From Candidatus Nomurabacteria bacterium (GTDB lineage Bacteria; Patescibacteriota; Minisyncoccia; Phycocordibacterales; UBA9973), in contig CALRDL010000002.1 of NCBI GenBank assembly GCA_943354905.1, positions 6,478 through 70,477 of the forward strand: DNA of 64,000 nt, in the 5' to 3' direction. The translations under genes and the position numbers were made by a program. Positions within the stretch are counted from its first letter, which is position 1; every line of letters starts with the position of its first letter. Below, piece after piece: positions 29,869-50,988 of the stretch. The notes under the pieces are model-generated. The model was not told the DNA's origin. It saw nothing but the letters and a program-made list of their open reading frames with translations, and made no database searches.

Positions 29869-31386
29869 ATGACTACACAAAAAGAAATAGAAAAACAAGA
29901 AGAATTAAACAAAGTCCTATGGGATTCAGCAAATTCTTCCCGTAGTCAGCTTAACGCTGCAGATTATATGGGCTATGTTTTACCCATGCTTTTTTTAAAG
30001 TATCTAAGTGATAAATCAAAACAAGCACACGAAGAATACAAAAAACGTTTTGGATCTGATGAAAAGCGTGTTGAAGAAAAAATGAAGCTTGACCGATTCT
30101 TTCTTCCTAAAAAAGCTTCATTTGATTATATCTATTCTATTATAGAGCAAGATAATTTGGGAGAAGAAATAAATAAAGCTCTTGAGCGAATAGAAGATGC
30201 AAACAAAGAAAAGCTTGAGGGTGTATTTAGTGTAGATTTCAATTCTGAGTCATCGCTTGGAAAATTAAATGAAAGAAATAAAATGTTGCGGAACCTTGTT
30301 AATGATTTTGCAAAAATTGACCTCTCAGAAGTGAAAGACGACATTATTGGTAATTCATATATGTATCTTATTGAACGCTTTGGGGCTGACGCAGGAAAAA
30401 AAGCGGGAGAATTTTTCACCGTGAGAAATGTCGCACACTTAGTGGCAAAACTTGCTGAGCCAAAATCGGGAGCTCGTATATGCGACCCTTGTTGCGGATC
30501 CGGCGGGCTACTTTTACTCGCAGGAGAAGAGGTAGAAAAACAAGGTTCAACAAATTATGCTCTCTATGGGCAAGAATCAACAGGTTCCACATATCAGCTT
30601 GCTCGAATGAATATGTTTCTTCATGGAAAAGATTCTGCTCGTCTTGAATGGGGTGATACTTTAAATAATCCTCTGCTTGTAGAAAATGACCACCTTATGA
30701 AGTTTGATAATATCGTAGCGAACCCACCTTTTTCTCTTAAGAAATGGGGTGCTGAACACGCTGATGCAGATAAATATAAAAGATTTTGGAGAGGTGTTCC
30801 ACCAAAAGATAAAGGAGACTTTGCATTTATTACCCACATGATAGAAACAGCCAAGCCAAAGACGGGACGCATTGCTGTTATTGTTCCTCATGGTGTACTT
30901 TTCCGCTCTGGCGCGGAAGGTAAAATCCGTGAGCAATTAATCAAAGAAAATATTATTGATGCTGTTATTGGACTTCCTGCGGGATTATTTCAAACTACTG
31001 GTATCCCTGTCGCTATTCTTGTAATAGATAGGTCAAGAGAAAAAGGTGGAGCAAATGAAAACAAAAAAGATATTTTCTTTATAGAGGCCTCAAAAGAATT
31101 CAAGGCAAACAAAGCTCAAAATATTCTAGCCGAAGAAAATATTGAAAAGATTTATTCCACATACAAGAAAAGAAAAGATGTAGAGAAATTTGCTCGGAGT
31201 GTAAAGTTTTCAGAGCTTGAAGAAAATGATTTTAATTTGAACATCACTCGCTATGTAGATACTTTTATAGAAGAAGAACCAGTGAACATAAAAGCAAACT
31301 TAAAAGAGCTTGCGGAATTAGAACCACAGCTTCAAAAATTGGAAAAACAAATGGTCGCGTATTTAAAGGAATTAGGGGTTAAATAA
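29869..31386 (+). CDS. hsdM: Type I R-M N6-adenine DNA methyltransferase subunit M
   Basis: HsdM N-domain, AdoMet motif CDPCCGSGG, and catalytic motif IVANPPFS. Confidence 0.85.
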   Translation: MTTQKEIEKQEELNKVLWDSANSSRSQLNAADYMGYVLPMLFLKYLSDKSKQAHEEYKKRFGSDEKRVEEKMKLDRFFLPKKASFDYIYSIIEQDNLGEEINKALERIEDANKEKLEGVFSVDFNSESSLGKLNERNKMLRNLVNDFAKIDLSEVKDDIIGNSYMYLIERFGADAGKKAGEFFTVRNVAHLVAKLAEPKSGARICDPCCGSGGLLLLAGEEVEKQGSTNYALYGQESTGSTYQLARMNMFLHGKDSARLEWGDTLNNPLLVENDHLMKFDNIVANPPFSLKKWGAEHADADKYKRFWRGVPPKDKGDFAFITHMIETAKPKTGRIAVIVPHGVLFRSGAEGKIREQLIKENIIDAVIGLPAGLFQTTGIPVAILVIDRSREKGGANENKKDIFFIEASKEFKANKAQNILAEENIEKIYSTYKKRKDVEKFARSVKFSELEENDFNLNITRYVDTFIEEEPVNIKANLKELAELEPQLQKLEKQMVAYLKELGVK

Positions 31387-31439
31387 AATTATTAATCAAT
31401 TTGTCGATGTCGGCAAATGATAATTAAAAAATTAATTAT

Positions 31440-32261
31440 ATGAAAACATCAATTTTTGAAGAATTAAAAAAGATAAATGAATATGGACAAGAATATTGGA
31501 GTGCTCGAAAGCTTGGGGAAGTTTTGGGATATTCAGAATATCGTTTTTTTATTCCAGTTATAGAGAAAGCAAAAAAAGCGTGTGAAAATAGCGGTTTTTT
31601 GCCACCCGACCATTTCGAGGATGTCCACGGTATGGTTCCCATAGGTTCTGGTGCGGAACGTCAAATTTCTGATACAAACATGTCTAGATATGCTTGTTAC
31701 CTAGTTGTTCAGAGTGCTGATTCTTCAAAAGTGATTGTAGGAAAAGCAAAATCATATTTTGCAATTCAAACCCGTAGACAAGAAACTCAAGACCAACTTT
31801 TAGATGATAGCAAGCGAGTTATGCTTCGTGGTGAAATGACAGAACATAATAAAAAACTTGCGAGTGCTGCAAAATCTGCGGGTGTTTTCAATTATGCTAA
31901 TTTTCAAGATGCTGGATATATAGGACTTTATGGCGGACTTCGTCAAAAAGATATTCATGCTCGAAAAAAATTAAATGAAAAACAAAGTATTCTTGATCAT
32001 ATGGGGAGTGAAGAATTAGCTGCGAATTTATTCCGAGCAACTCAAACAGAAGCAAAACTTCGTCGTGAAAATATTCGTGGTCAAGGATTAGCAAGTACTG
32101 CCCATCAAGAGGTCGGTGCAAAAGTTCGGAAAACTATTATTGAATTGGGTGGCACAATGCCTGAAAACCTGCCAACAGAGGAAAGTATTAGAGAGCCGAA
32201 AAAGAGACTGAAGGCAGTAAATAGAAAATTATTAAAAGGTAGTAAAAAGAAAGATAAATAA
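31440..32261 (+). CDS. DinD-like (DNA-damage-inducible protein D family) protein
   Basis: Contains YGQEYWSARKLGEVLGY...HFEDV..MV.IGSGAERQI.D...SRYACYL...YFAIQTRRQE, matching remembered E. coli DinD. Confidence 0.5.
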   Translation: MKTSIFEELKKINEYGQEYWSARKLGEVLGYSEYRFFIPVIEKAKKACENSGFLPPDHFEDVHGMVPIGSGAERQISDTNMSRYACYLVVQSADSSKVIVGKAKSYFAIQTRRQETQDQLLDDSKRVMLRGEMTEHNKKLASAAKSAGVFNYANFQDAGYIGLYGGLRQKDIHARKKLNEKQSILDHMGSEELAANLFRATQTEAKLRRENIRGQGLASTAHQEVGAKVRKTIIELGGTMPENLPTEESIREPKKRLKAVNRKLLKGSKKKDK

Positions 32262-32342
32262 ATTATCCACAACCATATCGTCCCATACGGACAAAATGGT
32301 CAAAACAGTCGAATTTAAAAGAATTAAGGGTTAAATAAATAT

Positions 32343-32972
32343 ATGAAACAAGAATATACACCACCAGCATATAAAGAAACAGCATTTAATTGTCCATTTT
32401 GTAATGCTTACGCTAATCAATTTTGGGATAGTCTCGCTAAGGTTGAACGTGCAAAATGGCATTATAGTGATGTTGATGGATGTGTGTGTACTCGTTGTGG
32501 TCATGAATCAATTTGGTTTAAAAATATAATGGTCTATCCTTCTTTTGAAGGAGTTCAGCCCCCAAATCAGGATTTAAGCGAAGATATTCAATTTGATTAT
32601 CAGGAAGCGGCATCGATACTTCAAAAATCGCCTCGTGGAGCGGCGGCTCTCCTTCGTCTTGCTATTCAAAAGTTATGTAAAGAGTTCGGAGAAGAAGGAA
32701 AAAACATTAACACTGACATAAAAAATCTTGTTGCAAAAGGTTTACCATCAGCCGTTCAAAAATCCCTTGATATTGTCCGAGTTATTGGAAACGACGCTGT
32801 TCACCCTGGGCAAATAGATATTAGTGATGATATCGAAACAGCAAAAGCATTATTTAAACTTGTTAATTTAATTGCTGAAAAAATAATAACAGAGAAAAAA
32901 GAGGTCGAAGAAATTTATAATAGTTTGCCTGAATCAAAGCGACAAGAAATTGAAAAGCGTGATTCTAAATAA
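32343..32972 (+). CDS. DUF4145-domain protein (frequent companion of type I R-M loci) with an N-terminal CxxC zinc-ribbon
   Basis: Contains AAALLRLAIQKL...LD.VRVIGNDAVH and an N-terminal CPFC...CTRC. Confidence 0.5.
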   Translation: MKQEYTPPAYKETAFNCPFCNAYANQFWDSLAKVERAKWHYSDVDGCVCTRCGHESIWFKNIMVYPSFEGVQPPNQDLSEDIQFDYQEAASILQKSPRGAAALLRLAIQKLCKEFGEEGKNINTDIKNLVAKGLPSAVQKSLDIVRVIGNDAVHPGQIDISDDIETAKALFKLVNLIAEKIITEKKEVEEIYNSLPESKRQEIEKRDSK

Positions 32973-33789
32973 AAATATGAACACTTTAAAAGAAAGATGG
33001 AGAATGTTTGGTAGTGTGGCTCTTGGTCCTGGGGCAATAATCTTTTCTTTGCTCACTGTAGGAAGTTTAATTGTTGCGTATATTTTTAACACCAACCTAC
33101 TGTTCTCTACACTCCTGACTATTCTTGCCAGTTTTTTTGCAAGTTTTGCCGGTAGTTTTATAAAAGACGACTATGACAAGATAGCAGGCCAAAATGTCTT
33201 GGAGAAAAAAGGTAGATCTGCTCTTCGTACCTTAGAATCATTAAATCGCCAAGTAAAAAGGATTTGTTCTTATGTTAGAGAAGAAATAGATAATAATAAA
33301 AAACCAAATCAGCATTTTTTGGTAGAAATAAATAGGCATATGTTTTCCATGGAAGACAGTATCGCTTCTAGTGTTGAAGATTGGGTGGATGTTATTCCCG
33401 AACTTGCTCAAACTATGGAAGAAATAAGAAAAATTAATAAGTTGTCTTTTGAAATTGAAGACTTAAAACAGAAAGAGCAAGAACACCAGAAAAATGAAGA
33501 AGATGGTGCTAAAAAAGAGGGTGAGTTAAGAAAAATAATTGAAGAGAAAGAATCGAGCTTAAGAGAATTACGACAAAAAAGAAGCATGTCAAATAATACT
33601 GTACTATTTAATCCTTCTATTATTTCTAACGGTGGGTCACCGTTTGCTTATCCAAACCAAGTTTTTCTTTCGTCTCCTTGTGCTAATTGCGGAAATCCAA
33701 TTGATCTCAGTTCTCCAATTTTGAGACTAAATTCAAGTCTTTGCCATAACTGTCAGGGCGCTGGAGGGCTTTATGCTAGAGCTTCATAA
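32950..33789 (+). CDS. Membrane-anchored coiled-coil protein (hypothetical) inside the hsd locus
   Basis: Two N-terminal TM helices, a charged coiled-coil middle region, and a C-terminal CANCG...CHNC. Confidence 0.3.
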   Translation: MKSVILNKNMNTLKERWRMFGSVALGPGAIIFSLLTVGSLIVAYIFNTNLLFSTLLTILASFFASFAGSFIKDDYDKIAGQNVLEKKGRSALRTLESLNRQVKRICSYVREEIDNNKKPNQHFLVEINRHMFSMEDSIASSVEDWVDVIPELAQTMEEIRKINKLSFEIEDLKQKEQEHQKNEEDGAKKEGELRKIIEEKESSLRELRQKRSMSNNTVLFNPSIISNGGSPFAYPNQVFLSSPCANCGNPIDLSSPILRLNSSLCHNCQGAGGLYARAS

Positions 33790-35050
33790 AAGTAAAATGA
33801 AACCTAACCAATCACAAAAAAATATTTCAAAAGAATGGCAAACAAGAAAACTAGACAGTATGTTTACCGTGCGTCGAGGTGGGTCACCAAGACCAATTGA
33901 AAGTTATATTACAAATAGAGCTGATGGGTTAAACTGGCTTAAAATTGGCGATATTGACGTTGGTGCAAAATATATTACGAAAACTAGTAGTAAAATCTTA
34001 AAAGAAGGATTATCTAGAACAACACTGGTCAAAAAAGGAGATTTTATACTTTCTAATTCCATGAGTTTTGGAAGACCATATATTATGGGTATAGATTCGT
34101 GTATTCACGACGGCTGGCTAACTTTTCAAGATATTAAAACTAATATTTTAGATCGTGATTTTTTATATTATCTACTTTCACAATCAAAAACCCAAGCAAT
34201 ATTTACATCAATTTCTGCTGGTTCTGGTGTTCAAAATTTAAAAAAAGAAACTGTTTCTGGTGTTGTATTATCAATTCCTCCTCTCCCTGAGCAAAACCGC
34301 ATCGTTGCAGTGCTTGAAACTTGGGACAAGGCGATTGAAAATTTAAATAAGAAAATTGAAATTAAAAAACAAATTAAAAAAGGTTTGATGCAGGATTTGT
34401 TGACTGGCAAAAAAAGATTAAGTGGATTTAAAGAAAAATGGGAAACAAAAACATTGGGAGATGTTTCTGATTTCATTAATGGCTATACCTTTAAAAGTGG
34501 AAATTATGTTGATGGAGGAAAGTATAAAATTATAACGATTGCTAATGTTCAAGATGGATTTATGTTTATTGACGAACCTAAAACCATTAATGAATTACCG
34601 GAAAATATAGGTAAGGAACAAATTTTAAAAAAGGGAGATATTTTAATATCTATGACGGGGAATGTTGGAAGAGTTTGTGTGGTCAATAGTGATAACTGTC
34701 TACTAAATCAAAGAGTTGGCAAAATTATGACTAAAGATATTAATAAGGAATTACTGTATTTATTTTTATACGATAGAAGGTTTCTATATCAAATGATTGG
34801 AAGTGCACAGGGTGGAGCACAAGCAAATTTATCAACCGAAGATATAAAAGAATATATTTTTGATCTTCCTAAAACAAAAGAAGAACAAAATGCTGTTGCT
34901 GAAATTTTAACTACTGCTGATAAGGAAATTACAGAGCTAGAAAAGAAATTATCAATTATAAAAGATCAGAAGAAGTTTTTATTAAACAATTTAATCACTG
35001 GGGCGATTCGAACTCCGGTGAATATGCAGTTGTACGGAAAAATCGTATAA
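33773..35050 (+). CDS. hsdS: Type I R-M specificity subunit, full length (two TRDs)
   Basis: 425 aa with two TRDs separated by the central conserved helix (PPLPEQNRI...) and the C-terminal repeat (LPKTKEEQNAVAEIL). Confidence 0.8.
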   Translation: MLELHKSKMKPNQSQKNISKEWQTRKLDSMFTVRRGGSPRPIESYITNRADGLNWLKIGDIDVGAKYITKTSSKILKEGLSRTTLVKKGDFILSNSMSFGRPYIMGIDSCIHDGWLTFQDIKTNILDRDFLYYLLSQSKTQAIFTSISAGSGVQNLKKETVSGVVLSIPPLPEQNRIVAVLETWDKAIENLNKKIEIKKQIKKGLMQDLLTGKKRLSGFKEKWETKTLGDVSDFINGYTFKSGNYVDGGKYKIITIANVQDGFMFIDEPKTINELPENIGKEQILKKGDILISMTGNVGRVCVVNSDNCLLNQRVGKIMTKDINKELLYLFLYDRRFLYQMIGSAQGGAQANLSTEDIKEYIFDLPKTKEEQNAVAEILTTADKEITELEKKLSIIKDQKKFLLNNLITGAIRTPVNMQLYGKIV

Positions 35051-35288
35051 CTGAAACATTATCAATTAAAGTTTAATTATGGCGAATATGCCACAAATAG
35101 AAATATGAAAAAGAAACAAACACAAGAAAAGAAAACGACTCCAAAAGAAGAAGAGTGGATGAAGCTATTTAGTGAGGTTACTGGAGCAGTGTTTGTTGAT
35201 GTAACACCAGAGAAATTATCACAAAGAAATTTTAAAGGAGTAAGGGTGTTAAATGGTCGTGTTGTAAATAAAAAGAAATTAAAATAAT

Positions 35289-38200
35289 ATGTTAGAAAAA
35301 GTAAATTTTGATGAGGCAAAGCAGTCGCAACTTCCATTCATAGAGTTGTTATTTAATATGGGCTATAAGTATATTTCGACAGATGAAGCCCTACGACAAC
35401 GTGGTGGTGATACAACAAACTTTATACTTTCTGATATTGCTGTGAAAAAATTGATGGAAATAAACGGCTATGAGGTTGATGAGGTTAAATATAAATTCAG
35501 TGAGAAAGATGTACGAGATGTGATAGACGAAATAGAGCATATTCAATATGAAGGGCTTATTGATACGGCGCAAAATATTTACAATATGATTATGCCGACT
35601 TCTGGAGGCAAGACTATCAAAGTAAGCCATGATGGCAAGCCGATTTCTAAAAACTTTAGATTTATAGATTTCAAAAATATTGAAAATAATAATTTTCATG
35701 TTACGGCTGAATTTACAGCTAGTGGAAAGCAAAATATCCGTCCTGATATTGTTTGTTTTATAAATGGTATTCCTTTTGCAATTATTGAGAATAAGAAAAA
35801 AAGTGTTTCTATCAAAGAAGCTATTGGGGATTTGATAAAAAAGCAAAGTCCTGAATATTGCCCTAAATTATATACTTATGCTCAACTTCTAGTGGCGACA
35901 AATGCTAGTGAATTACAATATGGAACGACTGGGACGTTAAATAAATTTTTTGCTGTTTGGAAAGAGAAAGGAAAAGATATAAAAGAAATAGACGCTCATA
36001 TCAAAGAAATAATGTCTAAACCTATTGATAAAGAAGTCTATTCTCAGATACTCACAGATCTTAATGGGTGGACAAAAGGACATACACAAAAGATAGATAG
36101 GGTTATTACGGGTCAAGACAGAGGTATTGTTTCATTATTTGAGCCGGAAAGACTTTTAGATTTAACTAAAAATCATATTCTTTTTGACGCAGGAGTAAAG
36201 AAAATTTCCCGCTATCAACAATATTTTGCTATTCGTAAGATGTTGAAGAGAATTGAGGAAGAGGAAATTGTAAATGAAGATACTACTCGCCGAAAGGGCG
36301 GGCTTGTTTGGCATACTCAAGGTTCTGGTAAATCTCTCACTATGGTTATGTTTGTGAAAGCTCTTATTGAAGACCCTAAGATTATTAATCCGAGAGTTAT
36401 TATTGTCACAGACAGACGCGACCTTGATAGACAAATTAGAGATACTTTCAAAAATTGTAATTTAAAAAAGGAAGTAGTGCAGGCTACAAGCGGGCAACAT
36501 TTACTCAATTTAATTAAAGAAAAGAATTTAGGCGTTATTACTACAATTATTGATAAATTTGAATCAGCAAGTAAAAAATATGCTAATTTTGTAGATAAAG
36601 ATAATAATATTTTTGTTTTAATTGACGAAGCTCACAGAAGTCAAAGTGGTATGGCAAATTTTGAAATGAATAGGATTATTCCCAATGCTTGTTATATAGG
36701 ATTTACGGGAACACCTTTAATGAGAAGTGAGGGAGAAAGCTGGAGAAAATTTGGCGGATATATTGATAAATATACGATAGATGATGCTCTTGCTGATAAA
36801 ATCATTCTACCTCTTATTTACGAGGGACGATATATAAATTTAGAACAAAATAAAACACAAATAGATAAACATATTGATCGTGTGTCAGAAGATATGAGCA
36901 GGAAATACAATGAAAATACAGTAAGTAATGAGCATAAAATAAAACTCCAAAAGCAAATTACAGCTGATATTCTAAAAAATAATCCACAAAGAATAGAAGA
37001 AATTGCTAGAGACATAGAAAAACACTTCACAGAACATTTCAAAGACACAGGACTCAAAGCTCAAATTGTTGCCCCATCAAAATATTCAGCTATCTTATTC
37101 CAAAACTTTTTTGAAAAGCGCGGAAATATAAATACTGCTGTGGTTATTTCTGACGAGCATGATGACGGCGATGAAGATAATACTCACAAAATAGAAGTAG
37201 TGAAGTATTTAGACAAAATTCGCAAAAATCACAGCAGTATTACGAAATACGAAAAAGATGTTATTGAAAGCTTCAAACATGGCGAAGGTGGAGTTGAAAT
37301 AATCATTGTGGTAGATAAACTCTTGACGGGCTTTGATGCTCCGAGAAATACTGTCTTATATCTTTCTAAAGATCTACATGACCACGGACTACTTCAAGCA
37401 ATTGCTCGTGTAAATAGACTTTTTGAAAATAATAAACTACCAAAGACGGCTGGATATATTATTGATTATTCAGAAAATGCTAAAAACATAGATACAGCTA
37501 TGAAGCTTTTCGGTAACTATGACGAAAATGATGTTAAAGGAACACTGATTGATGTATCAGAGAAAATAAATGAATTAGAACAGAGTTATGGTTTAATTCA
37601 TGACTTATTTAATGAAATAAAAAATTCGTCTGACGACGAAGTTTATTTGCAATTTCTTAAGGATGAAGCAAAAAGAGAAATGTTTTATAAAAGCTTAAAT
37701 GATTTTATAAGAAACTTAAATGAATGTTTTATTTTACAGGATTTTGTTCATGAATTCAAAGATAAGATAGGAATGTATAAAAAAGATTTAAAGAAATTTA
37801 TGGAAATCCGAAAATCAGCCAGTCTTCTTTATAGAGAAAGGGTGGATTTGTCAGAATATAAACAGTCATTGATTAAAATTCTTGATAAATATGTTGACGC
37901 CAAAGGAGTTGAATTGCTCACAAAACAAGTAAATATTACAGACAGGGAGCAATTTAAAGAAGCTGTTGAAAATCTTGGTTCTAATAAATCAAAAGCGGAA
38001 GCGATAGCCTCTCAAACACAAAGAACTATTAGCGAACAAATGTATAAAGATCCAGAATTTTTTGAAAGATTTTCAAAGAAGATAGAGGAAATCATAGAAA
38101 AAATGAGGTTGGGAAAATTAGCGGATATTGAAGCCCTAAAGCAAATGAGACTCATTAGTGACGATGTGCTCAATAAAAAAGGAGATGACTTGCCAAAGGA

Positions 38201-38507
38201 GATAAAAGGGCTAAATGGCTCAGATGTCTTTTATCGTAATTTAAAGGTCCAATTTGAGGGTTTAGGGGTCAATAATGGGGTATATGTCTCAATTGTCCTA
38301 GATATTTTCTCTATACTTAAACAGGGAGCAATAATTGACTGGCAGAAAAATATGGATGTTAAAAGAAAAATTAGAAACACAATTGATGACTATTTATATG
38401 ATGTAGTAAAAGGAGAAAAAGGAATAGATATTGATAGTGATTTTATTAAATCAATTATTGATACCATTATGCTTTTAGCTGAAAATAACTTTGAACTATT
38501 TTTATAA
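35289..38507 (+). CDS. hsdR: Type I R-M restriction subunit R (helicase/endonuclease)
   Basis: 1072 aa with PD-(D/E)xK N-domain residues, GSGKSLTMV and DEAHRSQ helicase motifs, and a C-terminal helical domain. Confidence 0.85.
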   Translation: MLEKVNFDEAKQSQLPFIELLFNMGYKYISTDEALRQRGGDTTNFILSDIAVKKLMEINGYEVDEVKYKFSEKDVRDVIDEIEHIQYEGLIDTAQNIYNMIMPTSGGKTIKVSHDGKPISKNFRFIDFKNIENNNFHVTAEFTASGKQNIRPDIVCFINGIPFAIIENKKKSVSIKEAIGDLIKKQSPEYCPKLYTYAQLLVATNASELQYGTTGTLNKFFAVWKEKGKDIKEIDAHIKEIMSKPIDKEVYSQILTDLNGWTKGHTQKIDRVITGQDRGIVSLFEPERLLDLTKNHILFDAGVKKISRYQQYFAIRKMLKRIEEEEIVNEDTTRRKGGLVWHTQGSGKSLTMVMFVKALIEDPKIINPRVIIVTDRRDLDRQIRDTFKNCNLKKEVVQATSGQHLLNLIKEKNLGVITTIIDKFESASKKYANFVDKDNNIFVLIDEAHRSQSGMANFEMNRIIPNACYIGFTGTPLMRSEGESWRKFGGYIDKYTIDDALADKIILPLIYEGRYINLEQNKTQIDKHIDRVSEDMSRKYNENTVSNEHKIKLQKQITADILKNNPQRIEEIARDIEKHFTEHFKDTGLKAQIVAPSKYSAILFQNFFEKRGNINTAVVISDEHDDGDEDNTHKIEVVKYLDKIRKNHSSITKYEKDVIESFKHGEGGVEIIIVVDKLLTGFDAPRNTVLYLSKDLHDHGLLQAIARVNRLFENNKLPKTAGYIIDYSENAKNIDTAMKLFGNYDENDVKGTLIDVSEKINELEQSYGLIHDLFNEIKNSSDDEVYLQFLKDEAKREMFYKSLNDFIRNLNECFILQDFVHEFKDKIGMYKKDLKKFMEIRKSASLLYRERVDLSEYKQSLIKILDKYVDAKGVELLTKQVNITDREQFKEAVENLGSNKSKAEAIASQTQRTISEQMYKDPEFFERFSKKIEEIIEKMRLGKLADIEALKQMRLISDDVLNKKGDDLPKEIKGLNGSDVFYRNLKVQFEGLGVNNGVYVSIVLDIFSILKQGAIIDWQKNMDVKRKIRNTIDDYLYDVVKGEKGIDIDSDFIKSIIDTIMLLAENNFELFL

Positions 38508-39213
38508 TATGAAAAAATTTGTCTTTGGAACATTCATATATGAATATCATCTTATCAAACAAGATAGAAAAACTCTTTCTTTGACAGTTGTTCCCGATTT
38601 AAAAATCATTCTTAAATGTCCGCATAATGCTGATGATAAGAGGATAGAGGAATTTTTGAAAAGAAAATGGTTTTGGCTAGAAAAACAACTTTCCTTTTTC
38701 AAGAAATATCAAAGAAATATTTACCAAAAAGAATATATTTCTGGCGAGGGATATTTATATCTTGGCAGACAATACAAACTTGTCGTTAAACACGGCAAGG
38801 AAGATCTGGTCACCCTTACAAAAGGCAAACTAATGGTGTCTTCGACTAAATTAGTATCAAATGGCAATTACAATAAAAAATTGATTGATATTTGGTTTTT
38901 AGAAAAAATGCAGAAAATCTTTCAAGAAAGATTTTCTGCTATGTTGGATAAATTTGATTACAAAAATAATCCAGTTTTGAAAATACGAGAAATGAAAAAA
39001 CGCTGGGGTAGTTTTTTGAATAAAGACAAAATTTTTCTCAATCCCAAGCTCATTAGTACACCAAAAGAATGTATTGATTACGTAATAGTTCATGAGCTTT
39101 GTCATCTAAAATACAAAAATCATGACAAAAGGTTTTTTGAGTTGTTCAATAAAAAATTTCCAAAATGGGAAAAAGTTAAAGATAAATTAGAAATTTTAGG
39201 AGTAGGTATTTAA
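38491..39213 (+). CDS. DUF45/YgjP-like (M48-related) zinc metallopeptidase
   Basis: Contains YVIVHELCHL (HExxH) and lies downstream of hsdR, a known association. Confidence 0.55.
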   Translation: MNYFYNMKKFVFGTFIYEYHLIKQDRKTLSLTVVPDLKIILKCPHNADDKRIEEFLKRKWFWLEKQLSFFKKYQRNIYQKEYISGEGYLYLGRQYKLVVKHGKEDLVTLTKGKLMVSSTKLVSNGNYNKKLIDIWFLEKMQKIFQERFSAMLDKFDYKNNPVLKIREMKKRWGSFLNKDKIFLNPKLISTPKECIDYVIVHELCHLKYKNHDKRFFELFNKKFPKWEKVKDKLEILGVGI

Positions 39214-39214
39214 T

Positions 39215-39452
39215 TGAAGCCCACCCTCGCCCCATCGCCCATACCAAAAAAAAGAATTCCCCCCCCGCCAAACTAAAATAGAATGGAAATGCGATGGAGT
39301 GAGGGCAGACGACGAGCTTAAGCTCGTCGTGGCGGAATTGTTAGCGTTACCACATTAGTAGAGCGTGAAAAATAGTTTAGAAAAATAATAGTCGTAGAGC
39401 GTGAGATTAAGTATTTTGCTGGAAAAAAGTTCGTGCAAAGGTTAGGATTACT
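39215..39452. repeat. GC-rich repeat modules (homologous to 27317-27400 in inverted orientation) preceding the recombinase left inverted repeat
   Basis: The shared string is cctcgcccc..cccataccaaa...cccccgc..aaa...atggaaatg..tgg. Confidence 0.5.
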
Positions 39453-39591
39453 CCGCAAATTGAAACTTCCTCGGCAGAAAGCGAAAAAAGCGGGCGCGCC
39501 AAAGGCGCGGTATGAAGTGATGAAATGAAATCCGCCTTGCGGGTGCAGGTGAAAATGGAGGGCGGGCAGAAAAAGAAATGAGATTGAAATA
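39453..39591. repeat. Left terminal inverted repeat (~139 bp) of the serine-recombinase element
   Basis: Its reverse complement matches 41018-41149 almost perfectly, with a single ~7-nt indel. Confidence 0.75.
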
Positions 39592-39620
39592 GTATTATCA
39601 GTTTTGAATCCAAAAGCAAT

Positions 39621-41198
39621 ATGAACAAACCAAAATATTTTCTCTATGCTCGCAAGTCCACAGAAGATGATGACAGACAAGTCATGTCCATTGAAGCACA
39701 GCTTTTTGAATTGCGTGAATTTGCGAGCAGAGAAAATCTTGAAATTCTTGAAGAATTTCAAGAGTCAAAAAGCGCAAAGAGTCCGGGACGAAGTGTCTTC
39801 GGCGAAATGATGAATAAAATTGAAAGTATGGATGGTGTTGGTATTCTTGGATGGCACCCGGATCGTTTAGCGAGAAATTCAATTGACGGTGGACGCATCA
39901 TTTATGCCGTAGACACTACAAAAATAGTTTCTTTACGCTTTCCGACATTTTGGTTTGAACCCACACCGCAGGGGCTGTTTATGCTTCAAGTGGCATTCGG
40001 ACAAAGTAAATATTATTCTGACAACCTAAAACAGAATGTTGAGCGAGGTTTTCGCCAAAAACTGCGACGAGGTGAATGGCTAACGCGCGCGCCATTTGGT
40101 TATGTGAACAATTTAATTACGCACAATATTGAACCTGATCCGGTGAAATCTAAAATCATCGTGCGCGCGTACAAAGCGTACGCAACAGGTTCACATACTC
40201 TCGTTTCGTTATCGCAGTTTTTGGCGGAACATGGTGTTGTCCAAAAGTCCGGAACGCCACTTGTCAAAGCTTCCGTGCAAAGAATGTTATCCAATCGCGC
40301 ATATCTCGGCCTCGTCAAACACCACGGCGAGTTCTTCACCGGAAGCTTTGCGTCAATTCTTTCTCCAACACTATTTGAAGCTGTGCAAAAAGTTTTAGAG
40401 AGACGAGCACATCCGAGACATAGCAAGATATCTCACAATTTTCCATTCACCGGTCTTTTTCGATGCGCTGAATGTGACAGTATGATTTCCGCACAATGGG
40501 CAACTGGAAAATGTGGTGGGCGGTATCGGTACTATCGATGCTCGAAAAAACGCGGTGTCTGTTTACAAAAATATCTTCGTGAAGATCTGCTCGTCTCCCA
40601 AATCAGAGAACAGCTTCAAGCAGTGTCGCTTCCCGAAGAGTGGTCGGATTATATGCTCAAAAAGGTAGAAAGATTTGAGCATGAAGAAACCAACGCTTCA
40701 GAAAGTCGGCTCGGGCAGATGAAAGAAGATTTAAAAATGCTTGAAGCGAAACTCGACGCATTAGTTGATTTATACTTAAACAAAGATATTGAAAGAGAAA
40801 TATATTTAGTGAAAAAAGATATTTTAATGCGTCAAAAAATCTCGCTTCAAGCCAAATCTTCATCTACCCGAGCCGAGAGAAAGAATTGGGTCGAACCCCT
40901 GCGGAAATGGATTTTGGATTCAAAACACGCGGGGTTTCTCGCTACGAGTGAAAATCTCCACGAAATGAGAGATTTTCTTCGTTCCTTTGGAACGAACCCC
41001 GCGCTGAATGACAAAACTATTTCAATCTCATTTTGCCCGCCCTCCATTTTCACCTGCACCCGCAAGGCGGATTTCATTTCATCACTTCATACCGCGCCTT
41101 TGGCGCGCCCGCTTTTTTCGCTTTCTGCCGAGGAAGTTTCAATTTGCGGACAGAGTGAGATTCGAACTCACGGTCCTTTTAAGGGGACGGCGGTTTAG
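39621..41198 (+). mobile_element. Large serine recombinase (resolvase/invertase catalytic domain plus recombinase domain plus zinc ribbon). The annotated C-terminus reads through the right inverted repeat and tRNA, so the true stop is uncertain
   Basis: Catalytic-Ser motif YARKSTEDDDRQVMSIEAQ, resolvase fold (GILGWHPDRLAR), and zinc ribbon CAECDSM...CGGRYRYYRC. Confidence 0.7.
41018..41149. repeat. Right terminal inverted repeat of the serine-recombinase element, ending exactly at the 3' end of the minus-strand tRNA
   Basis: Reverse complement of 39453-39591. The last bases (..ATTTGCGG) overlap the tRNA acceptor/discriminator. Confidence 0.75.
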
Positions 41199-41233
41199 TA
41201 AACCGCTCCCGTAAACCACTTGGGTATCTGTCC
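41147..41233 (-). tRNA. Type II (long variable arm) tRNA, Ser-like, with apparent anticodon ACT (unusual); CCA not encoded
   Basis: Minus strand: acceptor GGACAGA/TCTGTCC with discriminator G, D-stem CCC/GGG, anticodon stem-loop GCGGT-TTACTAA-ACCGC, long variable hairpin GTCC..GGAC, T-arm GTGAG-TTCGAAT-CTCAC. Confidence 0.45.
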
Positions 41234-41333: not shown

Positions 41334-41423
41334 GGAGCCGTGGGAGAGCGGTCTAATCTACATCTTTGCTAAAGATGCAGGGGTTAAACCCCCTCGCGAG
41401 TTCGAATCTCGCCGGCTCCGCCA
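41334..41423 (+). tRNA. tRNA-Ser(GCU), CCA encoded
   Basis: Acceptor GGAGCCG/CGGCTCC with discriminator G followed by CCA, anticodon stem-loop CATCT-TTGCTAA-AGATG, long variable arm CAGGGGTTAAACCCCCT, T-arm GCGAG-TTCGAAT-CTCGC. Confidence 0.7.
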
Positions 41424-41465
41424 AAATTGGGAATCCGCATTTCTGGCGGGAATGCTTCACCCGAA

Positions 41466-41667
41466 TTTTTGTGGTATCTACTGGACAAAGTTCGAATGTT
41501 TTTTGCTAATAATCCTGACGACCAATGATGCGCGCCTCGTTCGCTCCCTGTGGTCGCGGGAGCAAAAACCAAAAATTTTCCTTACCTTTCTTATTTTCCT
41601 CGGCGGGGGGTGTGGGGGGGGGAGCCGACAAAAAATGGAAAGGAAATTTTTGGTTTTGCTTCGCCGC
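41466..41667. repeat. Inverted repeat copy 1 (~200 bp, GC-rich, with G6/G9 homopolymers) bounding the xre-fic cassette
   Basis: Its reverse complement matches 43846-44047. The central 150 bp are near-identical and the edges diverge. Confidence 0.7.
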
Positions 41668-41729
41668 TATGTTAATAATATACGAAAATGGTATATTCCA
41701 CAATAGACTATATTATGTTAATATCTATA

Positions 41730-41947
41730 TGTCGAAAAAATATTTGCCAAAATATCAAAAACTCACCGCAAAACTTCTTTCTGCTCGCCTAGAAGCAGGT
41801 TTAACACAGGTTGAAGTAGGTAAAAAGCTCAAGAAACCACAGGTGTATCTTTCTAAGATAGAACGAGGTGAGCGCGGAGTTGATGTGGTAGAATTAGCAG
41901 AACTGGCAAAGATTTACAATAAAGACATTAACTATTTTGTAAAATAA
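41730..41947 (+). CDS. XRE-family helix-turn-helix transcriptional regulator
   Basis: Contains LSARLEAGLTQVEVGKKLKKPQVYLSKIERGER, an HTH_3-type motif. The longer upstream extension given in the ORF track (41525..) lies inside the repeat and is probably not translated. A paralogue lies at 62047-62268. Confidence 0.55.
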
Positions 41948-42115
41948 TATGCCCAGAAACACTGAGCAAAAGAAAAAAGAGATAGAAGGCATCCTGGCTC
42001 GATACGAGGCAGGAATGATTATTCTAAGGCAGAAGCGAGATAAGATTATTTCCACTTTTCTTGAGTTGTTGAAAGAGAAAAAACTTGAAGAATTAAGAAA
42101 TTCACTCAAACAATT

Positions 42116-43576
42116 ATGAAATCCCCCGAAAATTTTACACCACCACAGACAGAAGTATCAAAAACTGAAAGTGAGATGACTCTATCTCCAGAGGTTGAAG
42201 TAGTGGAAGCCACTACTGAGTCGCTGGAACAATACAAAGAAACAGTAGAAGCTCATATTGATGAGCAATCGACAAATATAAATGCAGAAGCTGGACAAAA
42301 GATTGAAAGTTCCGCTAAAAATATGAATGTATCCCCTGAATTACTGGATTCAACAAAAGCAGAGAGTGGGTTAGAAAACCAAATGGCTGAAATTCAAGAT
42401 GAAGCAAATCAATTAAATCGAGTAGTAAAATTAGAGATTTCTGAAACGGTCGCAGAAGCTCCAGTGGAGAACACTCCTGAATCGGAAGTAAATCTCTCGG
42501 GAGGAAATGAATCAAAGGAAGATAAATTAGAAACCGGAGGAAAAGTTTTTGAATTTTTAGACCGCACAAAATTTTTGGATGTTCGAAAATCAGACGAACA
42601 ATTTAATGAGTGGCTTCAAAAACTTTCTTACGAAGATTATACAGATTACGTTACGCGCCTAAATGGTATTTTACGCGAAGTTCCAATAAAAGATCGTGGG
42701 GTAGATGGCGGAGAGGGTGAAGAAGTTTCTATCGGTACTAGAGGATATAATTTTTATGTTCCACCTGGTGCTGAACAAAAAGATGGTTTAATGCGAGAAA
42801 GTTTTCAAGCTCTCAAACAAATACCAGACAACGAAGATCGTGCTCTTTTAGCGTATTATACGATGCAAGCCGTTCACCCGTATGCTGACGGAAATGGTAG
42901 AACTGGTAGATTACTCCATGAAATAATTTCTGAAGACGGTAAAGAAATCACTAGCGAAAAACTCTCTGAACTTTTGGATCATGAGGAAAAAGGGCCGAAT
43001 GCTGTTGGAAAAGGACAAGATATTTTCTCTGAAAGAGTTTTAGAACCAAGCAGTGCGTATGAGTACATTAACCGAGAAGTTGCAAAAGAGGTTCTTGGTG
43101 ATGATTTTTTTAAGCAATATGGCTCTATCCATGTCGAACGTGGAGTTGGTAAAGATGCTGCTTTTTTACCAACAGCAGTAAAAGAAAAATTATCGCCAGA
43201 AGATGTAATTTTAGCTGAAAAAATTTTAGGTGAAGCAGGCATAAAAAATTTCTCTACTAGCGGCATAGTTTTAGCAAGGCTACTTTTGGAAAAAAGTGAT
43301 GAAATTTATAATCAATATCACTACGAGTATCCATTAAATGAGGAGGCTGACATGTCTATGGAGGGTATGGAAAAAAAGTATTTTGGAATTGATGGGCAAA
43401 ATCTTATGGCAAATTTGAGTGAAGAAGATGCACACAGGTTGATAGAAATTCACGCAAGTGTAAAAAATAGATTTATTGAAGACATGATTGATATTTTTGT
43501 ACATCCAGAGAATCGTCAAATGAAAGACGAAAACGGGAAAGATATTCCGATCAAGAGCGTCTTTCGTCGCAGTTAA
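42116..43576 (+). CDS. Fic-domain protein (AMPylase/Fic-Doc family)
   Basis: Canonical Fic motif HPYADGNGRTGRLL and an acidic N-terminal region. A small ORF (~41949-42118) lies between xre and this gene. Confidence 0.7.
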   Translation: MKSPENFTPPQTEVSKTESEMTLSPEVEVVEATTESLEQYKETVEAHIDEQSTNINAEAGQKIESSAKNMNVSPELLDSTKAESGLENQMAEIQDEANQLNRVVKLEISETVAEAPVENTPESEVNLSGGNESKEDKLETGGKVFEFLDRTKFLDVRKSDEQFNEWLQKLSYEDYTDYVTRLNGILREVPIKDRGVDGGEGEEVSIGTRGYNFYVPPGAEQKDGLMRESFQALKQIPDNEDRALLAYYTMQAVHPYADGNGRTGRLLHEIISEDGKEITSEKLSELLDHEEKGPNAVGKGQDIFSERVLEPSSAYEYINREVAKEVLGDDFFKQYGSIHVERGVGKDAAFLPTAVKEKLSPEDVILAEKILGEAGIKNFSTSGIVLARLLLEKSDEIYNQYHYEYPLNEEADMSMEGMEKKYFGIDGQNLMANLSEEDAHRLIEIHASVKNRFIEDMIDIFVHPENRQMKDENGKDIPIKSVFRRS

Positions 43577-43581
43577 GGGAG

Positions 43582-43627
43582 CAATCCCCGCCGTTTTATA
43601 ATATCTCCTAAAAAACGGCGGGGATTT
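43582..43627 (+). terminator. Strong hairpin terminator after fic
   Basis: CAATCCCCGCCGTTTT..(loop)..AAAACGGCGGGGATTTG forms a ~15-bp stem. Confidence 0.5.
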
Positions 43628-43845
43628 GTGCGCGCACAGGGCGGGCGGGGCAAGCACATACAGATTTGTTTGTGCCTAGCACAATCCGCTTTATGAGTTA
43701 CCACTGTTCTCTGTCGAAGCCACAGAGTATCAAGCTACCACAGAACATCGAGAGGAAGCGCCTCGTCTCGCCGCAAGGACGGAGAAATGAACAACGCCAA
43801 AGAACCACAAATGATATAATGAAAATGTTAATTTCATAGTCTGTA

Positions 43846-44047
43846 GCGGCGAAGCAAAACCAAAAATTTCCTTTCCATTTTTTGTCGACTCCCCCCCACC
43901 CCCCGCCGAGGAAAATAAGAAAGGTAAGGAAAATTTTTGGTTTTTGCTCCCGCGACCACAGGGAGCGAACGAGGCGCGCGATTAGTAGCTTTCATCAGGA
44001 TTTAGCTCGAAGTAATTTCGAACTTTGTCCAGTAGATACCACAAAAA
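43846..44047. repeat. Inverted repeat copy 2 bounding the xre-fic cassette
   Basis: Reverse complement of 41466-41667. Confidence 0.7.
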
Positions 44048-44130
44048 TTGGCATAAGGTACATTTTCCGTGGCTTGTTTTGAGGGTTTTACCCTTGTGGT
44101 ATATAACTAGAAGTGCTAACTTTTAATTAT

Positions 44131-44337: not shown

Positions 44338-44877
44338 AATCTAATTTCTGATTTTACAGAAGAAGTTCAAGCATCTATAGAGGTTAAAAAATAGTAGGAT
44401 TCTATAAAATTATAGTTATCCACAACAACTTGAATAATTCCTGTATTTTAGTATACTATAAGTATCTCATTTACCTAGTGTAAAAGGAGCACTTGAAACG
44501 CCTCGCAAGAGGCGTTTCTTGCTATGTGGGGCTAGAATTTTTGGAATACTTTTCAAACTCTTTGCGGTGTCGTTTTTTCTGATATGGATAATCAACGTAG
44601 ATTCCAGTGATAATATAAAATCCATGTTTATTTTCATCTAGTATCACAAGATAGCTACCACATTCTAAATATAGGCACACACGATTTGTTTTTCGTTTAT
44701 TGCAGTAATTTTTTCTTTTGGTACATATATAGAACCAAGCACCATAACTGGGGCTTTATCAAACTCTAAATGGTTGCTTTCGTCGCAGTAAATATTGTAT
44801 TCGGTCATAACGCATTGTATTATAGCAAAATTTTGTAGTTTTTGGGAGCAAAAATCATGCGCGCGAACGGGAGGGTG

Positions 44878-45010
44878 GGTTAAGCACATGCATTCTGTGC
44901 CTCGGGCATTTCCGCTAGGGTGTTCACGATTAAAGGACGAGTGCCTGACCCGAATTGCAATCCATAATCGAAAGCGAAAGCTACACACCAAACATAATAT
45001 TGAAAAACGT
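44878..45010. repeat. GC-rich repeat module (same family as 27727-27833 inverted and 43630-43690)
   Basis: The string gcgaacgggagggtgggttaagcacatgcattctgtgcctcgggcatttccgctagggtg..aaaggacgagtgcct..aattgcaa..agcgaaagc aligns with the other copies. Confidence 0.55.
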
Positions 45011-49226: not shown

Positions 49227-49263
49227 ATGGTCGCATTATTAAATTAATTAATTAAAAAATATT

Positions 49264-49632
49264 ATGAAAAACATTCAGAAAATTATTCTATTTTTCACTT
49301 CTATTGTTCTCCTGCATTTTTTTGCTAACACTTTCGGCTTGTATGAGATGTCCTTTGTTTGGTTCGATAATATTTTGCATATATTAACTGGCATTGGATT
49401 CGGATTAGTGTGGCTGTGGGTTTTCAGAGGCTCATTAAAAGGAGCAATTATCTTTGTTGTTGCACTTGCTATACTCTGGGAACTCCTCGAGTTTGGTTTC
49501 TTGCAATTATTCCCAATCTACGCCTATAAATTAAGTATTTTTTCACCTAATATTGGAGAAGCTTTAGAAGATATCTTTTCTAATATATTCGGTGTAGCCA
49601 TCATGGCAATATATTTAAAATTAAAGGAATGA
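49264..49632 (+). CDS. Small membrane protein (hypothetical)
   Basis: Hydrophobic helices; the gene ends within the junction repeat TTAAAGGAATGAAATTATAA. Confidence 0.3.
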   Translation: MKNIQKIILFFTSIVLLHFFANTFGLYEMSFVWFDNILHILTGIGFGLVWLWVFRGSLKGAIIFVVALAILWELLEFGFLQLFPIYAYKLSIFSPNIGEALEDIFSNIFGVAIMAIYLKLKE

Positions 49633-49679
49633 AATTATAAAGGTCGAATATTATTAAATTAATCAAAAAATAAATTATT

Positions 49680-49901
49680 ATGAAACTTTCAAAAATATTT
49701 CATGTTATAGGTGCTATTGTCGGATGGGTTGGAGTTATTGCTCTTTTGAGCGCTTGGTTTGCAAGTAAAAATGGTTTAGTATTAGGAATGAGTGAGACGC
49801 ATCTTTTTATGGATGCAATAGTTCTTGTGCTTGTTGCTATCTGGCTTCAACTTGGAACAATTCACCACATGATGTTGGAGAAGACTGGGGAGAAAATATA
49901 A
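49680..49901 (+). CDS. 73-aa two-TM protein, paralogue family member 1 (C-terminal IHHMMLEKTGEKI)
   Basis: Near-identical family members lie at 51264..51485 and 52840..53061. Confidence 0.45.
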   Translation: MKLSKIFHVIGAIVGWVGVIALLSAWFASKNGLVLGMSETHLFMDAIVLVLVAIWLQLGTIHHMMLEKTGEKI

Positions 49902-49910
49902 CTATCATTT

Positions 49911-50303
49911 ATGATTACTCAAAAACTAAAAACCATATTTTTTATATCAATTCCAATCTTTATTGCTCACGGCATTGAAGAGTATTTTACTGGCTTATAT
50001 AATTTTGATTTTTTCTATCAATCTTTTTCTAATCCAAAATTAGTATTTGTAATTGTTGTTCCTGTCTTAGCAAATATTTTATTAATAGTTTCTTATGTAC
50101 TTGTTAAAAAAAATAAATGGGTGTTTGGTTTATCTTTTTTACTAGGGCTACTCTTTATTTTTGAATTAACTCATATCTATGAAGCTATTATGGTAAGGGG
50201 CTATTATCCTGGATTATATACTGCAATTCCTTTACTAATTGTCGGATTTCTTTTCTGGAAAGAATTATTAAAAAATTATAAAAGTCGAACATTATTAAAA
50301 TAA
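49911..50303 (+). CDS. Small membrane protein (hypothetical)
   Basis: Three or four TM helices. Confidence 0.3.
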   Translation: MITQKLKTIFFISIPIFIAHGIEEYFTGLYNFDFFYQSFSNPKLVFVIVVPVLANILLIVSYVLVKKNKWVFGLSFLLGLLFIFELTHIYEAIMVRGYYPGLYTAIPLLIVGFLFWKELLKNYKSRTLLK

Positions 50304-50314
50304 ATAAAAATAAC

Positions 50315-50938
50315 ATGAATAATAAAATTGTATTTGGAATAGGAGGAGTCGTAGTCGGTTTAGTTTTAGCAGGCATGTTTGGGGGAAGTATGTTTTCTGC
50401 ATTTAACAATGGGAATAATAGAATGATGGGTAACAATCAAAATACAGGAAGTAGTCAAATGATGGGGAGTATAGACAAACATTTCATCGAGCAGATGATT
50501 CCGCACCATGATGGAGCTGTTGCGATGGCAACACTCGCTCTCGAAAAATCAAAGCGTCCCGAAATTAAAACTCTCGCGAACGCAATAATTGAAGCTCAAA
50601 ATAAAGAAATAGTGGATATGCGAAGCTGGTATAAAAATTGGTTTGGTAAAAATGTTCCAAAAGAAAGTACAGGTATGATGGAGGGAGGAATGATGTCCGG
50701 GGGTGGAATGCATATGGGAGGAGATGAAGATATTAAGGCTCTAAAAAATGCGATAGATTTTGACAAGGCATTTCTTGAGGGGATGATCCCACATCATCAG
50801 TTAGCTATAATGATGGCACAGATGTTGAAGTCAGGAACTGATAGACCAGAGATGCTGACACTTGCGGATAATATCATCGAATCACAATCTAAAGAGATAA
50901 AACAAATGCAAGGTTGGTATAGTAATTGGTATAAATAA
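50315..50938 (+). CDS. DUF305-family protein (copper-resistance-associated four-helix protein)
   Basis: Two F.E.MIPHH repeats plus a Met/Gly-rich linker (MMEGGMMSGGGMHMGG). Confidence 0.7.
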   Translation: MNNKIVFGIGGVVVGLVLAGMFGGSMFSAFNNGNNRMMGNNQNTGSSQMMGSIDKHFIEQMIPHHDGAVAMATLALEKSKRPEIKTLANAIIEAQNKEIVDMRSWYKNWFGKNVPKESTGMMEGGMMSGGGMHMGGDEDIKALKNAIDFDKAFLEGMIPHHQLAIMMAQMLKSGTDRPEMLTLADNIIESQSKEIKQMQGWYSNWYK

Positions 50939-50988
50939 AATTATAAACATCTGTCGAGATTATTAAAAGTTAATTAAAATAAAAATAT

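Follow-up and report, generated by a model that had tools for sequence, protein, structure and literature searches.

A putative integrative island with a large serine recombinase at the 3' end of tRNA genes in Candidate Phyla Radiation bacteria

Organization of the locus

The sequence studied here is a 64-kb stretch of DNA (hereafter, the window) from contig CALRDL010000002.1 of a Candidatus Nomurabacteria bacterium (assembly GCA_943354905.1). The locus of interest comprises a gene for a large serine recombinase (LSR), a long inverted repeat with one arm at each end of this gene, and the tRNA-Ser(ACU) gene towards which the recombinase gene points (Table 1). A preliminary description made from the sequence alone had reported two reverse-complementary segments, and this was borne out by a repeat search of the window as well as by blastn. 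The repeat search delimited an outer part (39452-39576 / 41026-41150, 125 nt, 98% complementary) and, past a 7-nt indel, an inner continuation (39576-39600 / 41009-41033, 25 nt, 92%); blastn joined both parts into one alignment of 149 columns (94%), with arms at 39452-39600 and 41009-41150. The limits first proposed (39453-39591 / 41018-41149) were roughly right, if slightly short at the inner end. The repeats had also been called GC-rich in AT-rich surroundings, in agreement with a G+C content of 0.44-0.50 over 39.2-41.7 kb versus about 0.25-0.33 upstream. Given its length and its recurrence at the same place in 64 independent loci (see below), the repeat is not a product of chance.

The right arm ends at 41150, i.e. 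4-5 nt into the acceptor end of the tRNA gene, an overlap that had been noticed earlier and was recovered with both ARAGORN and Rfam. A tRNA-Ser with anticodon ACU (A34) is unusual in bacteria; it adjoins a normal tRNA-Ser(GCU). When the window was searched with Rfam at gathering and E-value thresholds, only tRNAs and tmRNA were matched, and no family covered the arms. A second, short inverted repeat (I7, 20 nt, 90%) was found just 5' of the ATG, its partner corresponding to codons about 429-436 of the recombinase gene (WILDSK).

A single enclosed gene coding for a serine recombinase with a zinc ribbon had been proposed, and the Pfam search agreed: the product displayed the Resolvase domain (PF00239, E = 9.5e-20 over aa 7-153), then the Recombinase domain (PF07508) and the zinc ribbon Zn_ribbon_recom (PF13408). 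The YARKST motif was invariant in 15 aligned homologues, and a match to the phrog_95 integrase spanned aa 2-459. The AlphaFold2 (AF2) model, of moderate confidence (mean predicted local distance difference test score, pLDDT, of 63), displayed strands at 288-307 and long helices at 339-386 and 392-418; residues 458-525 had pLDDT values below 50 and no secondary structure. The top 21 Foldseek matches were all LSR structures (LSR-DNA complexes, E = 4e-15 to 3e-4), with identities to solved LSRs of 10-22% over the Foldseek alignments. By its domains and predicted fold the protein is an LSR, remote from the characterised ones. No database record was found for the exact window protein.

A family of related loci

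Relatives were scanned in GTDB species representatives (one genome per species), where at least 573 were recorded. Eighty loci were fetched, 64 of which had both sides present and could be evaluated; homologue statistics were taken over the top 120 proteins. Homologues numbered in the thousands, and the top 120 displayed 62-93% identity over 97-100% of the length, the repeat-encoded part included. Named homologues pointed to Patescibacteria, i.e. the Candidate Phyla Radiation (CPR), and the 64 related loci belonged to CPR (Paceibacteria-type) genomes. Two genomes carried two copies each at different tRNAs. A convergent tRNA gene ended at +1516 to +1528 from the ATG in 69 of the 80 loci. About 20 anticodon types were represented: Glu-CTC/TTC was the commonest, accompanied by five Ser isoacceptors, Ile, Ala, Arg, Gly, Val, Leu, Lys and one anticodon TTA. 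This adjacency, together with the LSR domains, upholds the initial view of an LSR element at a tRNA 3' end.

The inverted repeat was present in 64/64 evaluable loci, where positions -170 to -25 paired with +1388 to +1528 over 115-155 nt. The short inner repeat likewise recurred in many loci, at -25 to -1 and +1284 to +1308. Over the first 115 nt, the arms of one locus displayed a median identity of 100% versus a median of 82% for the best between-locus match, and within-locus identity was the higher in 58/64 loci, which indicates that the arms evolve in concert. Arm 'alleles' were mixed between loci. Element G+C followed host G+C (r = 0.75, slope 0.44) and was for that reason rejected as a sign of recent transfer.

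The canonical LSR body covers about aa 1-460, and the tail (aa 463-525) is encoded by the right arm and the antisense strand of the tRNA. The reading frame had been described as lacking a stop of its own and running through both repeat and tRNA. In the window a TAG stop does exist, about 50 nt inside the antisense tRNA, and the frame enters the tRNA without passing through it; what stands is that no stop precedes the outer end of the repeat. This was a property of the whole family, the first stop lying beyond that end in 64/64 loci, 4-541 nt past the junction motif termed box below. The recombinase frame was open through the right arm in all 64 loci; frame +1 was open in 41/64 and frame +2 in 5/64. 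Within the right arm, a G+C-rich hairpin with a T-run behind it points outward in 39/64 loci and inward in 3/64. If this predicted hairpin terminates transcription, the recombinase mRNA would have no stop codon.

Conserved junctions with tRNA genes

The four outermost nucleotides of both arms always corresponded to nucleotides 71, 72 and 73 of the adjacent tRNA followed by C, a motif referred to here as the box. Its sequence changed with the adjacent tRNA: TCAC was found at Glu, Ile and Leu-TAG, GCAC at Arg, Gly and Leu-GAG, CCAC at Ala and Val, CCGC at Ser, and GGAC at Lys. The lowest mismatch rate of the arm (0.8%) was found in its first 10 nt, and comparison of the junctions confined the shared core to tRNA nt 71-73. 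Recombinase clusters of at least 80% identity spanned several tRNAs, mostly with one box (Glu with Ile, Ala with Val, Arg with Gly, all Ser). A few box changes were observed, among them that of the window lineage, which carries CCGC inside a TCAC clade.

Outside the left box lies a further conserved segment, hereafter the P-arm, with consensus tgtTcgAAAtAaGTTCGcGCAAAgG.tA..Atttca in 61 loci, whatever the tRNA. At family level it resembles a sigma-70 promoter (TnGAAA, 17 nt, TAnnAT) whose predicted start would fall about at the box. In the window the promoter-like motifs are TGGAAA (39420-39425) and TAGGAT (39443-39448), again 17 nt apart; this version is weaker, with 8/12 consensus matches, and was not called in a promoter scan of the window. 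A GTTCG motif occurs both in the window P-arm (39429-39433, 24 nt from the box) and in the tRNA T-loop (41167-41163, 18 nt from the box). For the A118-type integrase, positions 16-24 of attP half-sites and 11-19 of attB half-sites contain the zinc-ribbon motif, a 5-bp shift (PMC3783163). By analogy, the GTTCG spacing is suggestive of such an attP/attB half-site shift.

The far end, cargo genes and unoccupied tRNAs

The arm sequence is designated X, its inverted copy next to the tRNA X'. The site composed of P-arm, box and X upstream of the recombinase is named S2, and the one composed of tRNA, box and X is named S3. The far end was sought with a profile of P-arm, box and X over the loci with enough upstream DNA. 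An extra partial match (P-arm, box and a few more bases), named S1, was found in 14 loci on the opposite strand, 0.13-5.5 kb further left. Its solo P-arm was identical to the recombinase-proximal copy at 45/45 positions in 11 of the 14 loci, and its box was also that of the proximal site, except in L015, which shared the first 3 nt only (the minimum shared, TCA). Identity between S1 and S2 ended within or just after the box. The sequence past the S1 box was unrelated and often formed a hairpin with a T-run, as expected for a native tRNA terminator; in L053 this hairpin was shared with a convergent host DEAD-box helicase gene. The mirrored stretch (IR2) reached past the P-arm to a length of 166-265 nt, with about 96% identity, in 10 of the 14 loci. 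These 14 related loci contain both S3 and S1, an attL/attR-like junction pair in direct orientation with a common core. In the window, the left region was matched by homologous sequence on the left side of the P-arm in L005, L010, L014, L023 and L031, as far as -228 nt from the box, and no second copy of it was found within the 64 kb. The arms had initially been taken for the termini of the element; this does not hold, as conservation runs 50-230 nt further left and the far end in 14 relatives is S1.

Between the two P-arms, relatives carried 0.2-5.5 kb of cargo coding for DNA methylases, GmrSD/HNH proteins and AAA_15 and AAA_21 ATPases, as well as a GTP cyclohydrolase II fusion and an aromatic amino-acid lyase. 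An XRE regulator gene beside the recombinase-proximal arm was recorded in six loci, transcribed away from the recombinase. An 'integrase-only' element had been one of the two readings first offered. In view of the cargo and S1 in 14 relatives, this label describes a stranded or minimal copy and not the family.

Unoccupied tRNA genes were found in two ways. Other tRNAs in the fetched loci were not followed by X, which led us to reject X as a native tRNA trailer. The pair tRNA-Ser(CGA) and tRNA-Val(GAC) was 28 nt apart in L016 and split by a whole S1-S3 island in L061. When metagenomes were scanned with the tRNA-Ser(ACU) anticodon arm, at least 120 contigs were retrieved, indicating that this tRNA is a regular gene in these organisms. 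Eighty contigs were taken and 72, from other organisms, could be evaluated; X and the recombinase were absent beside tRNA-Ser(ACU) in 72/72. The tRNA is thus a normal gene of the host, beside which the element has inserted, and the possibility that tRNA-Ser(ACU) is itself cargo was discarded on the same counts. The empty sites for which a search had been proposed at the outset do exist. In the window the tRNA-Ser is complete according to ARAGORN and Rfam, the target gene being restored. No direct repeat of the tRNA 3' end and no direct target duplication were found anywhere in the 64 kb.

An inverted partial copy of the tRNA 3' half was observed at L039:3904+, L057:2909- and L102:3961-, and in the flanks after S1 in L040 and L075. 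It lies 3' of the terminator hairpin, downstream of some tRNA-Ser genes. Such copies were considered as the origin of the P-arm and rejected, being rare (7/352 tRNAs versus 1 in the shuffled control).

Two orientations of the recombinase gene

The order tRNA-Glu, box, X and then ATG, opposite to that of the window, was encountered in L016 and L068, on gap-free contigs. Moreover, in 12/120 homologues the C-terminal peptide (..SFARTFFQ..) was specified by the antisense P-arm and not by the antisense tRNA. Both orientations, for which a check had been suggested, therefore occur, in different organisms. Opposite-orientation relatives displayed recombinase bodies 80-83% identical and X-encoded tails about 97% identical, so that arms and gene bodies have partly separate histories. 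An exact look-up with the neighbouring YgjP-like gene returned two same-strain contigs, both in the orientation of the window; one ends 30 nt into the left arm. Flipping could be due to the recombinase, to homologous recombination between identical arms, or to the use of one or the other attP copy for integration. Near-perfect arm identity cannot result from a fixed crossover at the box, which implies that gene conversion or homologous recombination must also act.

L081 was dropped as an example of the opposite orientation owing to an NN scaffold gap inside X. At L082:1186-3060, an opposite-orientation recombinase is accompanied by arms from different lineages, with boxes GGAC at tRNA-Ile(TAT) versus TCAC at the P-arm. 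These arms have only 20 nt in common (GCGAATTCGGTGGGCGGGCA), and the locus is either a real mosaic or an assembly chimera.

Proposed organization and integration of the island

Taken together, the sequence comparisons make it likely that the gene codes for the integrase of a small integrative island inserting at the extreme 3' end of CPR tRNA genes. Read in the direction of the tRNA, such an island consists of tRNA, box, X, recombinase (pointing back at the tRNA), X', box, inverted P-arm, cargo, P-arm, box and flank. S3 is an attL-like site, represented in the window by the right arm and the tRNA, and S1, joining P-arm and box to the native tRNA flank, is its attR-like counterpart, present in relatives and absent from the window. 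The first and last sites lie in direct orientation with the box alone in common, like attL and attR. S2 is a complete attP-like copy, inverted and directly upstream of the recombinase gene, for which it probably provides promoter and leader. The repeat of the preliminary description corresponds to the two X copies, and the P-arms to a second pair bracketing the cargo.

Strand exchange would take place inside tRNA nt 71-73 and hence leave the tRNA intact. Recombination between S1 and S3 would release a circle with the recombinase and the cargo set apart by a single inverted repeat of ~0.4 kb, made of left region, P-arm, box and X; on integration, one copy of this repeat would be split at the box. 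Both orientations could then arise from integration via either repeat copy or from flipping between the arms. As the recombinase gene has no stop codon of its own, its tail would vary with the junction, being completed by antisense tRNA or antisense P-arm. The window copy, with its P-arm and 228-nt left region, both arms, an intact open reading frame (ORF), the tRNA, and thus S2 and S3, is probably a stranded copy, since S1 is absent from the 64 kb.

Several observations weigh against an integrative island. Of roughly 30 loci whose upstream sequence was long enough, only 14 yielded S1. In the window, neither S1 nor a second P-arm was detected by a motif search or by hidden Markov models of the full site and of the P-arm only; the P-arm searches gave only weak matches, at 63.8 kb and at 44.0 kb, both of them parts of other modules. 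The analysis yielded neither a circular form nor an empty site in the same species and no candidate for a directionality factor, and no viral contig encoded a relative of the recombinase. The shift of the GTTCG motif is 6 bp instead of 5, and no dyad symmetry was found between P-arm and X, unlike in a typical LSR attP. The tracking of host G+C suggests long residence and not frequent transfer. Gene conversion or homologous recombination alone could yield both orientations, and L082 (hybrid arms) and L081 (scaffold gap) are not simply fitted by the model.

Alternative interpretations

A self-inverting switch would overlap with this model and does not exclude it. Recombination between S2 and S3 at the box would flip the recombinase gene itself, toggling the P-arm promoter against read-through from the tRNA and exchanging the C-terminal tail, and flipping instead of integration would be the selected function. 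We consider this unlikely, though a number of features would suit it: the occurrence of both orientations (L016, L068 and the 12/120 proteins), in a ratio of about 9:1 which is not a neutral equilibrium, a best-matched part of the arm that is the outer end with the box, transcripts that may enter and meet an outward terminator-like hairpin, and many contigs that break near the repeat. The pairing would, however, be of attP x attL type, which characterised LSRs do not perform (PMC3783163), and nothing changes context on flipping except the recombinase gene. The two orientations are equally well explained by homologous recombination between arms (100% identical over 115 nt) or by integration through either attP, and no single population was found with both states. 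A broader scheme in which the island is a two-segment flip-flop element is more doubtful still. Its LSR would integrate at the T-arm/acceptor end of many tRNAs and also recombine attP-like with attL-like sites without a directionality factor, toggling its own promoter (P-arm versus tRNA read-through) and C-terminal tail; a terminator ahead of any stop would produce non-stop mRNA, and the 3-nt core would act as an evolvable address that retargets the enzyme between tRNAs.

On an RNA-level reading, the 5' leader and the 3' end of one mRNA might base-pair (about 140 bp, with a further 20 bp across the ribosome-binding region) as a means of autoregulation or of RNase III processing, the DNA symmetry being secondary. 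Such a device would account for a leader that begins about where the P-arm promoter would initiate, for the short repeat covering -25 to -1 before the ATG and for the perfect pairing of the arms. It is nevertheless improbable: arm differences displayed no sense-strand G.U bias (90 sense-wobble, 125 antisense-wobble and 303 transversions), perfect identity exceeds the needs of pairing, no Rfam family was matched, and S1 and box co-variation are features of DNA junctions that an RNA model does not predict. The mismatch pattern thus lends no support to the RNA hairpin contemplated in the preliminary description. An insertion sequence (IS)-like transposon, with the arms as terminal inverted repeats and the recombinase as transposase, would explain a single gene between long inverted repeats and copies at different tRNAs and twice per genome. 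It is contradicted by a conserved P-arm and left region outside the left arm, a far end formed by S1, the absence of a direct target duplication and a score of 18 bits against the IS607 model NF033518 (cut-off 110); the earlier opinion that this is no classical IS is upheld. As to a fold-back chimera of assembly, inverted repeats do disturb short-read assembly and contigs often end near the repeat, but the architecture recurs in 64 independent assemblies, flanked on either side by unique sequence and with arms specific to the lineage, which contradicts this explanation and leaves it a negligible chance.

Comparison with known systems

The window protein shares domain order and fold with large serine integrases (A118/LI, Bxb1, phiC31, SPbeta; CcrAB, XisF). 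Resemblance seems to extend to the sites, with a short core shared between them, a direct attL/attR-like pair and an element-arm motif about half a helical turn further from the core than the host-arm motif. In contrast to these systems, the target is formed by the last 3 nt of many tRNAs and not by one protein-coding gene, an inverted intact attP-like copy is kept beside the integrase gene while integrated, the ORF reads across the core without its own stop, and no directionality factor was seen.

The invertase Hin is encoded inside the invertible H segment of Salmonella, contrary to the early statement that invertase genes sit outside the segment they invert. Like Hin, the recombinase gene lies within a segment bounded by inverted repeats and occurs in both orientations. 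Enzymes of the Hin/Gin/Cin type are small and have a C-terminal HTH, and Hin acts on 26-bp hix sites with an enhancer and Fis and flips the promoter of another gene. Here the enzyme is a 525-aa LSR, the arms span 115-155 nt and no other gene is switched, which fits the earlier exclusion of a Hin/Gin-type switch. Enzymes of the phiRSM type are small, resolvase-like recombinases of filamentous phages which integrate at the 3' end of tRNA-Ser, and no inverted attP duplication is known among them. The likeness consists in a serine recombinase using a tRNA 3' end as target; this use as attB is mentioned through a citation within PMC7192596.

Islands found at tRNA genes are usually attributed to tyrosine integrases (PMC4383910). 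In common with tRNA islands and tycheposons, the present elements are small cargo islands beside a tRNA, with a tRNA-proximal integrase, defence or accessory cargo and integrase lineages partitioned by target tRNA. Tycheposons and tRNA islands rely on tyrosine integrases, and about 40 nt of the tRNA is left as a direct repeat (10.1101/2020.12.28.424599; PMC4383910), whereas here the recombinase is a serine enzyme, the shared sequence is limited to 3-5 nt and the prominent repeats are inverted ones. Integrase-driven inversions between tRNA genes were described in Thermococcales (PMC5495485). SSV-type archaeal and Thermococcales integrases resemble our case in that the site overlaps the integrase ORF, whose product is changed, and in that tRNA genes are recombination sites; they belong to the tyrosine integrases, and recombination divides the int gene into two parts, while only the tail would change here. 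The putative circle also recalls the yeast 2-micron plasmid with its FLP/FRT flip-flop, as two unique segments would be split by a long inverted repeat carrying the recombination site. That plasmid is eukaryotic, uses a tyrosine recombinase and replicates autonomously, unlike an element that integrates.

Searches of open-access papers turned up no LSR element with an inverted attP-like copy beside the integrase and no description of the CPR family. Small tRNA-inserting islands of this type form a widespread and apparently undescribed family in the ultra-small CPR bacteria. CPR mobile elements are poorly known, and tRNA targeting, held to be the domain of tyrosine integrases, would here be performed by a large and well-conserved LSR clade. 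The junctions suggest recognition of the universal T-loop together with a 3-nt core from tRNA positions 71-73, which would explain hopping between tRNAs with the same core, and such a simple address code could interest those who engineer LSRs for genome insertion. What stands out is the retained inverted attP-like copy, the stop-less ORF crossing the core, and two sets of inverted repeats kept identical, all of which raise testable questions on LSR directionality and self-regulation. In practical terms, these repeats break metagenomic assemblies at CPR tRNA genes.

Neighbouring features in the window

Table 1. Features of the locus (positions in the 64-kb window).
Feature	Position	Strand	Remarks
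Left region	39224..39402	+	outer part of the long repeat arm (IR2), mirrored at the far end of the island in relatives
P-arm	39403..39452	+	~50-nt outer arm of attP-like S2; nhmmer E = 2e-11
IR-L = X(L)	39452..39600	+	left inverted repeat (IR); inner arm of S2, 5' leader of the recombinase gene
Left box	39453..39457	+	CCGC+A (tRNA N71 N72 N73, C, A); putative crossover region
Mirror copy of terminator-like hairpin	39495-39509	-	
Short inner inverted repeat	39601..39620	+	just 5' of ATG; partner 40907-40926 inside ORF
Large serine recombinase (LSR) ORF	39621..41198	+	525 aa; TAG stop 41196-41198
IR-R = X(R)'	41009..41150	+	inner arm of attL-like S3; encodes the variable C-terminal tail
Terminator-like hairpin	41093..41117	+	CGCGCC-TTT-GGCGCG + CCCGCTTTTT; inside ORF, facing outward
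Right box	41145..41149	-	CCG of tRNA N71-N73 at 41149-41147, then C, A
tRNA-Ser(ACU)	41147..41233	-	target gene; ARAGORN 41146-41233, anticodon ACT; Rfam tRNA 41147-41233, 51.7 bits
Neighbouring element	41424..44049	+	beside tRNA-Ser(GCU) 41334-41423 (divergent)

The neighbouring element next to tRNA-Ser(GCU) is probably a sibling island devoid of recombinase. It begins with a remnant of ~40 nt (41424-41463) resembling the collapsed outer ends of X/X', followed by an inverted pair of ~205 nt (IR-B, 41464-41669 / 43844-44049) with outward P-arm-like ends (..TTTCGAACTTTGTCCAGTAGATAC-CCAC-A). IR-B flanks an XRE gene (41729-41947), homologous to the XRE cargo gene of relatives, and a Fic gene (42116-43576). 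A palindromic element with a poly-G/C centre between AAAACCAAAAATTTTCC arms is found at 41565-41657 and also at 39240-39300; it recurs in the left regions of L013, L052 and L061, between the P-arm and the XRE gene.

A third P-arm-like end, similar to the 41.5-kb repeat, was observed at 63779-63834 on the minus strand (nhmmer E = 0.014); the corresponding element would extend beyond the right limit of the window. A hairpin (CAGGGCGAA..TTCGCCCTG) comes after this P-arm-like end and is also present 3' of tRNA-Ser(ACU) in metagenome locus L107. Another inverted repeat (27729-27820 / 44873-44964, 92 nt, 83%) is G+C-rich and structured-looking (GCGAACGGGAGGG...GCACATGCATT...CCTCGGGCATTTCCGCTAGGGTG). 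It had no Rfam match, and similar stretches seem present in the cargo of L015 and L026. Directly adjoining the left region of the element is a type I restriction-modification operon (29869-39213), which includes HsdR (35289-38507) and a YgjP-like metallopeptidase (38491-39213). Finally, three tandem paralogous units were observed at 49237-53061, spaced by 1.58-2.0 kb, with conserved starts and upstream regions.

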